A DNA stretch of 64,000 bases from contig CAYPCY010000001.1 in assembly GCA_964409385.1 (NCBI GenBank), forward strand, positions 232,546-296,545, in the 5' to 3' direction. This document shows positions 50,101-53,100 of this stretch, piece by piece (the first letter of the stretch is position 1; every line of letters begins with the position of its first letter). Source of the DNA: an uncultured Methanosarcinales archaeon (GTDB lineage: Archaea > Nanobdellota > Nanobdellia > Woesearchaeales > CAYPCY01). Made by a program: the position numbers.

Positions 50101-53100
50101 AATATCATGTTCTGTTCCTATTGTAAAACAAGTAGGGTCTCCCTCTATTAATGCTACACATTCATCTACATTTTCACATTCTTTTTTTGCAAAAAATTCT
50201 TCTTCTTCACTTGCTGAAGATTCATCTATAACTGTGCCTATTATTGATTCTTCTTCAAATTCTATCATTATAATACCGCTTTTATCTGGTAGTTCAATTC
50301 CTGGCGCGCTCCTCATTGGTATTCCTCCTCTACACCATAATTTTAGTGGATAAGCTTCTTCATTTCCTAAATGGTTATTACTTTCTCCTGTTGATAAGCT
50401 AAGAATTGATAAATATTCATTATTTCCGTTAGTTTCAGGTTCTGTCTCACTCCATATACAATATATTCCTCCTGGTGCTTGAAAACTAGCATTTACCCAG
50501 TAAGGTTCGGAATATATTGTTGCAGCATGTGCATTTGTATTTCCTGAAAGTTTTAATAACGGTGCATTTCCCCAAATATCATCATTATTATAATTTGTTT
50601 CTTTTAATTCATCTCCTGTGCAACAAATATGAAATGGATAAATTACTATTTCTCCCGGAAAATCAAAATCTTTATTTTTTAAGGATGCGTGAGAGTTTGT
50701 ATCATTTTGTAAACTTAATAGTATCTCTTTCAAAAAACAAGCTCCTTCTAGATCGTCAGTTCCAAAATCACAAGAATGAAAAAATCTATTATCAACTGCA
50801 ACCGTAAAATTCATCATTATTAATATTAAGAGTATTAGGAGTTTTTTCATCCCCATACCACCATTACCATTCTTACGGGTTTTCCTTTATAATTGACTAT
50901 TTTAGTATATTTTACTAGTGTTTTATCAAAATCTTCAACATCTATAAATGTAACTTCTATTTCTTCTACAAAATTTCCTATACAACATTCTAGTTCGTGA
51001 GTTTCATTGTAGGGAACAAGAACATTTGGTTGCATTAAGTTACAATAATAATTAGCTTCATCAATATGTGCTTCTGGAATTATGCATCCATTCTTTCCAT
51101 TACATCTAATGTCGCATTCTCCTTGTCTATTTGTACATTGTGGCGTGCAGCCTAATTCTGTACAGTCTGGATCTTTATTTCCTCCGTCACAAGTTGCGCC
51201 CCATGTTTCTGGACATATTCCATCTTCCACACCGCAGCAGTAATAATTTTCGCATAATTTAACTCCTCCGTCTTCATTACAAGTTGCAAAATCGTTTGCT
51301 CCTTGAACTAAGTATATGCTTACTGCTAGAATTAAAAATAACATCAACCTCTTCATTAATCAGAAATACAAGAAAATAATATATAAAACTTGCTATAAAT
51401 CATTTAATCCTTCTTTCTCAACAATGAATGCAGCTTCTCCTTCTGGCAAATTTGGACTGTCTACAAGTTTTGCAACTCTAGAACCTTTTTTTCCTTTTCT
51501 TAAATAAATTCTGAATGTTGATGCATGTGCAACTATATGTCCGCCTATTGCTTGAGTAGGATCTCCAAAGAACATATCTGGTTTTGACATCACTTGATTG
51601 GTTAGATAAACACAAAGATTGTTCATATCTGCTAGTTTTAGAAGGATATGCATGTGCTTATTTAACTTTTGTTGTCTTTCTGCAAGTGTTCCTCTTCCTA
51701 CAAATTCTGCTCTAAAATGTGCAGTTAGTGAATCTACAATTACTAGTTTAACATTCAAATTATCTTTTATTAAATCTTGGACTTTTTCAGCTAGCAACAT
51801 TTGATGATCTGAATTATATGCTCTTGCAACTTTAATATTTTGTAAGACTTTTTCAGTATCTAATCCTGCTCCTTCAGCCAAGTCTTTTATTCTTTCTGGT
51901 CTAAACGTGTTTTCTGTATCTATGTATACTATTATTGCTTCAGGATCTTGTTTTTGAAGGTTTATTGCTAAAACATGTGCTATTTGTGTTTTTCCACTTC
52001 CGAATTCTCCAAAACATTCTGTTATTGCGCCTGTTTCAAAACCTCCTCCGAGCATTTGATCAAATGCTTCTACATTAGTTGTTATTTTAGTTACTGCTTC
52101 TCTTCTTTTTAATAAATCAATTCCTGATTGGAAGCCCATGTCTGCTTCTTCTCTTGCAGCTTGTATCATTTTTCTTGCGGATGATTCTGAGACTCCTGAA
52201 GCATCTACTAATTCTCCTGGTGTAGCTACTGCTATTGCAATTATACTATTAAATCCTGATAATTCTAATTTTTCTACTGTCGCTGCTCCGACTCCTGGAA
52301 GATCTAAGACTGATTTTTCTTTCATAATTACCACTTGTTCTGTCATTTTATATTACCTCCTTATTTTTAAGAGTTACTCTTATGCCTCGGAAACTATGCA
52401 GGCTTCGAATGCTTTTTGTAGAAGCAGATTTGCTTTTGGAAGGTCATTCACTCTTAATGTGTTTGTGTTTTTCCAATTTCCTTGTTCGTCTTTGTAGTTT
52501 CTTGTCAGACTTATTGTCTGAAAAGTTCCTTTTTCTGTTTTATTTTCCCAAATTGTTGCAGAGATTGCTCCTGCTTTGAATGATTTACTTGGTTTGTTAT
52601 TCATATTATTTACCTCCTTGCTTTCGCTTATTATTTCAAGTCCTTTCGGACGGGGTAAATAAGAATTAGTCTTTTTTGTTTAAATATATCACGCGAGAAT
52701 GTCCAGTGCAAATAATCTTTTTATTTCTCAAATATTTTGAAAAGATTTATAAACAATAATTACTAAAATCAATTTAAAGAAGTTTTATGTTATTTGTTGA
52801 ATAATTAAAAGGCGATTTAAGTTGTTAGAAAATAAATTGAAAAAGATTCAAAAAAATGAAGAAAAAATATATTTTGAAAAATCAGCCAAACAAATCCAAG
52901 GGATATCCACAAAAGAATTTAATTTTAAAAAAGAATTTCAAACCAAAAAATATTCTACAGAACTTCCCATTGTTCCTTTTGTTAAATGTTACGACTGTAG
53001 TTAAACAAAATTAATTATGATTTTAAAAAATTGTATTTTGTTAAAAAAGAAAAAATCTTTTTTCTTAGAAAGCTTGATTTCTGACCAGTCAATTGAATTA

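Follow-up and report, generated by a model that had tools for sequence, protein, structure and literature searches.

A 74-residue PUR-like protein encoded upstream of radA in Woesearchaeales, its promoter box, and its structured RNA leader

How do archaea without LexA respond to DNA damage, and what helps RadA onto single-stranded DNA (ssDNA)? Both long-open questions are touched by a locus from an uncultured woesearchaeal genome (G000), in which a 74-amino-acid open reading frame (ORF), here named X, precedes radA. We analyzed the locus within a window of 64,000 nucleotides (contig CAYPCY010000001.1, positions 232,546 to 296,545), and coordinates below are those of the window unless a contig is named. 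The initial annotation had described X as an unannotated gene co-transcribed with radA and, from its predicted fold, as a candidate ssDNA-binding partner or mediator of RadA; taken as a whole, this interpretation was partly supported. The locus is laid out as follows; its promoter box and structured leader carry the most information.

47558..48238, plus strand: RadB-like RecA paralogue, 3 kb downstream
51393..52346, minus strand: radA recombinase (Pfam Rad51, E 1e-84), second gene of the putative operon
52355..52360, minus strand: Shine-Dalgarno sequence of radA (GGAGGT), inside the X-radA spacer
52380..52604, minus strand: X, a 74-amino-acid single PC4/PUR-like repeat (four strands plus a helix), predicted homodimeric binder of single-stranded nucleic acid
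52605..52662, minus strand: structured 5' leader of X, predicted three-way junction
52612-52617, minus strand: Shine-Dalgarno sequence of X, paired by the outer helix of the leader
52619-52638, minus strand: conserved purine-rich linker and 2-bp mini-hairpin in the leader of X
52640-52651, minus strand: variable hairpin in the leader of X
52679..52688, minus strand: archaeal TATA box of the X-radA promoter
52700..52708, minus strand: CACTGGACA promoter box, 11 nt upstream of the TATA box, candidate operator for a regulon of DNA repair and replication genes spanning the order
54635..55933, minus strand: RPA-type OB-fold protein, 2 kb upstream of X on the same strand

The stop codon of X and the start of radA are 33 nt apart, no terminator-like site was found in 50700-53100, and the two genes probably form one co-transcribed operon. 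Directly upstream of X is a divergent radical-SAM and GNAT pair, followed by the RPA-type gene on the strand of X. The pair (radical SAM/SPASM and GNAT, 53017-54617, plus strand) splits RPA from X-radA; several relatives have a YdjM-family gene there. Farther upstream, 55984-58143 (minus strand) encodes a 719-amino-acid protein that weakly matches SLT transglycosylase (E 0.006), and upstream of that gene runs a row of genes with pilin-like N termini (58133-61596).

Is X a regular companion of radA? The ORF was confirmed as a real gene, and sequence searches revealed homologues at 30-63% identity in 129 of 151 genomes of the phylum (106 of 117 from the same order and 23 of 34 from other orders of the class); a profile search of the 22 missing genomes added one, for a total of 130. 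On this wider set, the earlier figures of 32 of 41 Nanobdellota genomes and 37-63% identity were borne out. In 122 of the 129 genomes, X lay on the same strand as radA and 1-661 nt upstream, as measured between matched stretches, the 661-nt distance having an assembly gap inside. Among the remaining eight X genomes, five carry X immediately ahead of a long radA ORF, one (G060) has a TnpB-like gene inserted between X and radA, and two have X detached; overall, X adjoins radA in 127 of 130 genomes from several orders. The upstream, same-strand arrangement, previously counted in 28 of 30 loci, was found in 29 of the 30 best loci. At least 14 genomes carry radA with intact upstream DNA and no X. 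Because RPA, the canonical ssDNA binder, is kept alongside X in G000, the window's own genome, and because 21 of the 151 genomes show no X, we conclude that X is not the essential single-stranded-DNA-binding protein (SSB).

The long radA ORFs (732-1387 amino acids; L067, L073-L077, L084) presumably contain one or more inteins, judging from their length. Two tandem X paralogues precede radA in G144 and G114 (L020, L082), with a leader on the first only, and an integrase gene lies immediately upstream of X-radA in G024 (L083). Detached or extra copies of X occur near cdc6, TFE-alpha, hjc, and DP1 genes (L071, L072, L078, L079, L081); the copy in G130 sits beside a D5-like primase-helicase gene in a virus-like region.

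What kind of protein is X? Our model of the monomer (pLDDT 94) consists of four strands and a helix (E5-11, E14-23, E26-38, E44-47, H54-70), matching the beta4-alpha topology modeled before at pLDDT 92. Searches with this monomer against PDB, BFVD, and VIA wide gave no significant fold match. Borrelia Pur-alpha, earlier reported as the top five Foldseek hits, occupied the top six rows (E 0.17-0.47, TM 0.34-0.37, rmsd 10-12 Å), PC4 ranked low (E 1.0), and the best VIA wide match reached Z 4.4, again not above Z 5, with Pur-alpha at rank 16 (Z 3.8). A probable cause of these weak matches is that the lone helix folds back onto the sheet of the same chain. In PC4-like proteins, two copies of the repeat exchange their helices, a fold that would not be expected of a repeat on its own (PMC7549692, available sections); for this reason, we modeled a natural two-repeat member of the family, P0151. 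This protein has 41 relatives, is homologous to X (hhalign 98.6%, E 1e-15), and had no Pfam match; in its model, the four-strand-helix unit occurs twice and forms a helix-swapped domain. The model matched Drosophila Pur-alpha I-II at Z 13.8 (rmsd 2.6 Å over 135 residues), followed by two cyanobacterial proteins of unknown function at Z 10 and unrelated rows at 5.7 or less. Foldseek returned 13 matches at E ≤0.001, with PURA first (4e-6), then Whirly and MRP1/2; PC4 was not among the structural matches listed for P0151. The models thus match PUR and not the OB fold. The proposal that X is a single PC4/PUR-like repeat, made firm by the two-repeat homologue, is well supported by these models, and the natural tandem fusions suggest that X is a helix-swapped homodimer.

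X resembles Pur-alpha I-II and Borrelia BpuR (DUF3276, PF11680) in its four-strand-helix repeat and in the existence of one- and two-repeat forms. It differs from them in sequence (about 10-15% identity, with PUR profiles for DUF3276/PurA matching 0 of 150 X members), in the SSB-type tails of its relatives, and in its conserved radA operon, since bacterial PUR genes are described as lacking a conserved context (PMC3575825, in the part available). PF11680 was not found in G000, and a positive control in Bacteroides worked. The type II PC4-like domain of X is also that of PC4/Sub1, the phage T5 PC4-like protein, and YdbC (DUF2128); X differs in that the PC4 and DUF2128 profiles matched 0 of 150 members. 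As described in the available portions of PMC7549692 and PMC8545432, PC4-like proteins are small ssDNA-binding homodimers with aromatic stacking residues, and the T5 protein is tied to recombination. PC4 and PUR have been stated to be absent from archaea (PMC3575825, in part), whereas the Whirly/Pur fold has been placed in all three domains (PMC13392464, in part), and because of the latter we do not claim a first archaeal example.

Across 150 relatives, P5, G12, W19, N21, Y37, W44, D54, and P56 were conserved in at least 90%, with W19, Y37, and W44 in 97-99% and R/K35 in 99%. Of the residues that the initial annotation placed on a putative aromatic and basic face (W19, R35, Y37, K40, W44), W19, R/K35, Y37, and W44 are thus conserved, and K40 needs correction: residue 40 is E in the window's X and K in 67% of the relatives, the conserved lysine being K38. 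Two acidic residues are also well conserved, D39 (87%) and D54 (96%). Could X be an enzyme, either a nuclease of the PC4 fold or a protein that melts DNA, and not just a passive binder? One PC4-like protein, AcrIIA22, is a nickase (PMC8545432, available sections), and its structure (7jta) matched the P0151 model at Z 5.0. However, Pur-alpha is far closer, AcrIIA22 is without the helix, and relatives of X carry SSB-type tails; we consider an enzymatic role very improbable.

The family reaches well beyond these archaea, into bacteria, plasmids, and phages. Its relatives fall into 2248 clusters (representatives at 50% identity), the cluster names being only "hypothetical protein," and Atlas look-alikes of X are bacterial and phage hypothetical proteins. 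No family in Pfam, PHROG, NCBIfam, or PDB sequences covered 150 aligned members, as had been noted for Pfam and PHROG; PDB sequences gave no match at E 10, and SSB profiles matched just 1-2 of the 150, at E 0.007-0.04. Neither a tblastn search of annotated phages with X nor a scan of viral contigs with a single protein gave a match. We also found no long X fusions (285-2000 amino acids), which is weak evidence. In a tree of 115 X-family domains (101 columns, a quick method, 12 starred branches, the detached copy L025 wrongly labeled), the radA-linked copies of other orders formed one group (SH-aLRT 94), and most bacterial copies lay apart. In the phylum of a Pirellulaceae genome, the family occurred in 5 of 41 genomes. 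It is accessory in bacteria and near core in these archaea. One of the five genomes, a Pirellulaceae genome (G151), has 17 matches; many of these stand in island-like regions where a stretch of 3 kb holds three copies that diverge from one another, and in G154 two copies precede a serine recombinase gene.

The tail of bacterial SSB is an acidic IPF tail, and SSB-type tails of the DDIPF kind occur in family members from bacterial plasmids and phages. All 42 two-repeat homologues of X end in xPF, 37 of them with an acidic IPF, VPF, or TPF end. On the other side, the window's X has no acidic tail, and only 54 of the 150 closest X representatives have a net acidic end. Nine viral X loci were found and seven inspected. 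In two of the seven, X ends in EDVPF or EDIPF: one (L184) reads RecT/Bet, exonuclease, NinB, X (EDVPF end), resolvase-like, DUF6291, DnaC, with X occupying the SSB slot of a RecT-exonuclease module, and the other (L189, EDIPF end) has a DnaD-like gene in the region. A third copy (L183) directly precedes DnaB and primase genes; terminase genes follow X in three of the seven loci, and one of the seven copies is in an island. ArdC lies just downstream of the two-repeat homologue in two of five genome loci. A bacterial-type X member matched nine plasmid records, and the seven opened have nearby ArdC and RadC; ParB (two loci); relaxase/MobC (two loci); ParA and a replication initiator; or an integrase. 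X homologues resemble bacterial and phage OB-fold SSBs in the tail of the two-repeat and phage forms, in the RecT-module slot, and in their proximity to plasmid leading-region genes; they differ in fold, and the archaea studied here have RPA, with X in an accessory role. Together with the putative damage regulon described below, the SSB-type tails, the phage SSB slot, and the ArdC neighbors support an ssDNA-binding role, and we consider it quite likely that X binds ssDNA. X is small and easy to produce, and the unnamed family to which it belongs looks, by genomic context, like a non-OB SSB of archaea, plasmids, and phages.

Is X instead a recombination mediator that binds RadA (or RPA) and loads RadA onto RPA-coated ssDNA? 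The linkage to radA across several orders would fit such a role, as would the acidic-hydrophobic tail in which many archaeal homologues end, a potential partner binder, and the phage T5 PC4-like protein has been proposed to promote recombination (PMC8545432 and PMC7549692, available sections). The tail, however, is not conserved and is absent from the window's X, the conserved residues recur in homologues on plasmids and phages, where no radA is adjacent, X and radA occur apart in the genomes noted above, and co-regulation alone accounts for the linkage. These observations make mediation by direct contact improbable. A complex prediction with two copies of X and RadA (the latter without an alignment) gave a score of 0.00, which weighs neither for nor against contact. 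FxxG is a RadA polymerization motif; a resemblance to it in X was dropped, as the turn is conserved in bacterial homologues too.

We then turn to the promoter. In the sequences upstream of X-radA, CACTGGACA occurs, often in tandem, shortly upstream of the TATA box, and a pattern match placed X under its own box in 25 of the 30 best loci. The box was found together with a TATA box in 115 of the 151 genomes, of which 109 are among the 117 of the order and 6 among the 34 outside it, and the reversed control pattern gave 0-2 matches per genome. G000 has two exact sites, one before X-radA and one before a row of very small acidic ORFs. From a set of 70 box loci, we chose 50 ORFs downstream of the box for comparison with Pfam. 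X-radA loci, tiny peptides, and short ORFs of doubtful status were set aside; two of the chosen ORFs are not the first gene after the box, and some orthologues appear more than once. Nineteen belong to repair, recombination, replication, or segregation, a raw count to be read without a background rate for random promoters. The targets include Hef, Lhr, UvrB, NreA, endonuclease IV, an SPL-like radical SAM protein, and MCM, as well as primase, Hjc, XseA, ScpA, and nucleases. Another 13 ORFs are LAGLIDADG endonucleases, 6 have other DNA-related matches (TnpB, Bro-N, methylase, HTH-IrrE, NrdR, DUF763), and 12 have no credible Pfam match. Most of these genes start about 43 nt after the box, as in leaderless genes; from this distance, transcription of X-radA would start near 52657.

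In an SOS regulon, genes for repair and recombination share a box that keeps its place in the promoter. This is the pattern seen here, and the CACTGGACA box appears to define such a regulon, one that would be damage inducible, across most of an order of uncultured archaea. The likeness to SOS includes a single upstream box on recombinase, excision repair, and replication genes and its uptake by selfish elements. The differences are that CACTGGACA is a nonpalindromic 9-mer in an activator-like position upstream of the TATA box and that no WYL activator was found in G000. The sso0777 promoter is reportedly a damage-inducible archaeal promoter activated by Sta1. A 172-amino-acid winged-helix-like protein whose own gene stands under the box (L147:171-686, also L106) was considered as a general regulator of the box and rejected: it occurs in 41 of 151 genomes, not in G000, and is also present in G039 and G045, which have no box.

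Does X itself read the box? X stands under it, and Whirly and PUR proteins act at promoters (PMC7549692, in part). Yet the box is abundant in genomes without X (22, 14, 8, and 5 pattern matches in G012, G015, G098, and G040, per-genome counts being inflated by overlapping matches), it remains before radA where X is missing, and an exact box is missing from many of the genomes of other orders that have X. Because the box is common in genomes without X, a role for X as the transcription factor reading it is largely refuted and hardly credible.

The box-bearing LAGLIDADG genes (L095, L114, L116, L125, L129, L131, L132, L137, L138, L144, L145, L150, L154; G000:C2:54823-55509) are free-standing, with the box in their own promoters, and several seemingly lie beside tRNA-like stretches. 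A TnpB gene (L094) likewise has the box in its own promoter. Such selfish elements may be tied to the host repair response through the box.

Can the region between the TATA box and X tell us how X is controlled? It comprises a variable hairpin, the linker UGAAAYAARA, a two-pair mini-hairpin with a GA-rich loop, and the Shine-Dalgarno sequence. A pattern in which the four stem bases of the mini-hairpin were free to be any C or G gave 107 matches in 98 of 151 genomes, 99 of them within 250 nt upstream of X (96 genomes). The stems were complementary in 96 of these 99 leaders (GC/GC 58, CC/GG 25, GG/CC 12, CG/CG 1); the pairs were counted directly, because a MAFFT alignment of the core failed to bring loops of 4 and 5 nt into register. 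A single match, with a noncomplementary stem, came from the 21 genomes without X. The exact pattern was present in 96 of 130 X genomes, leaving about a quarter without a match; in G000, the linker is one base longer, and its single site precedes X. Three loci have long hairpins inserted in the mini-loop, which is compatible with an RNA structure. Searches with Rfam covariance models at 12 loci gave no match over the leader at E 1, and viral contigs contained no exact match.

The predicted fold of the window's leader (-17.2 kcal/mol, z -5.4) is a three-way junction, with the ribosome site paired in the outer helix. This junction geometry was recovered in 24 of 35 leaders versus 1.1 expected from shuffles. 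Shine-Dalgarno pairing alone was modestly above shuffles (0.77 versus 0.61; 8 of 35 at p ≤0.05), and leaders from other orders show a weak outer helix. In radA upstream regions without X, the leader was found in 0 of 16 and the box in 4 of 16 by pattern, plus a fifth by eye. Detached or extra X copies kept the leader in one of six cases (the second copy of G008 lacks it), and two of the six lie downstream of a box. As judged from these comparisons, the leader of X covaries, is structured, and is tied to X. That the box stays with radA after loss of X and the leader does not suggests BpuR-like autoregulation. Leader loss could simply accompany loss of X, however, so that co-loss is not independent proof of X as the ligand.

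These data raise the question of whether X acts chiefly on RNA, as a translational regulator that adjusts RadA levels by way of the leader, and does not coat DNA during recombination. The nearest fold of X is PUR, BpuR autoregulates through its own 5' end (PMC6736767, available sections), RPA is present, and the leader follows X. The leader also precedes another box-controlled gene: in G073 (L162:300-1020, G073:C25), a box, a TATA box, and a full X-type leader stand before a tyrosine recombinase gene, not X. Nevertheless, bacterial and phage homologues have SSB-type tails and the SSB slot, no such leader was seen by eye at these homologues, and X is retained in archaeal genomes without a leader match. 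We regard a purely regulatory role as unlikely.

The reading we favor, and hold to be rather likely, is that X serves as an accessory SSB of the non-OB kind, is produced along with RadA from the CACTGGACA promoter, and is autoregulated through its leader, in an ssDNA-sensing operon. The X homodimer would bind single-stranded nucleic acid on its beta-sheets, and X and RadA would be made together from a promoter of the type that also drives other repair and replication genes. X would coat or melt ssDNA at forks and resected ends, beside RPA. In its free form, X would bind its own leader at the purine-rich three-way junction and keep the ribosome site closed; when ssDNA accumulates, X would be drawn off the leader and translation would rise, such that the operon would sense ssDNA. 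Control by X of its own translation, relieved by ssDNA, seems to us about evenly balanced; X as the ligand and the direction of control are proposed by analogy with BpuR. radA has its own ribosome site, separate from the leader of X. Several observations count against the favored reading: the viral copies that precede terminase genes, not recombination genes; the monomer's lack of a significant fold match; the missing acidic tail of the window's X; the presence of RPA; the nickase among PC4-like folds; and the X genomes and detached or extra X copies in which no leader was matched.

T4 gp32 is an ssDNA-binding protein with autogenous translational control. BpuR binds its own 5' end and blocks translation (PMC6736767, in the part available). 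X resembles both in having a conserved leader of its own that covers the ribosome site, and the structured, purine-rich nature of this leader fits autoregulation of the BpuR type. It differs in that the leader is an archaeal three-way junction with no Rfam match and heads a recombinase operon.

The locus looks like an archaeal damage-response circuit without an earlier description, new here being the CACTGGACA box regulon and the covarying RNA leader of X. No description of the X family, the box, or the leader was found among the results listed for the literature searched, most subscription papers lying outside its scope; RadA and PC4 are not mentioned in the available part of PMC9258230, and the supplementary family tables of PMC9258230 and PMC7549692 may list the X family. 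A broader picture, which we put forward tentatively, is a two-layer, LexA-free, SOS-like system in Woesearchaeales and their kin, in which homing endonucleases and TnpB would have hijacked the CACTGGACA-box regulon, a PUR-fold SSB would sense ssDNA by shuttling between DNA and the junction in its own mRNA, and the same family would serve plasmids and phages as a non-OB SSB. X, the box, and the leader are three testable objects, each open to in vitro work without culturing the organism.

In three loci from other orders (L075, L163, L170), the leader core occurs twice in tandem. Very small acidic ORFs (30-55 amino acids, with an EEE-F-M-GY-like end) stand under CACTGGACA in many genomes and may encode DNA-mimic or regulator peptides of the regulon. 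They form rows at G000:C1:37680-38040 (minus strand) and in L118, L124, L136, L152, and L157, as well as upstream of X in L071 and L079. The row in G000 converges on a cdc6 gene, and the detached X copies of G008 and G083 lie at the end of such a row.
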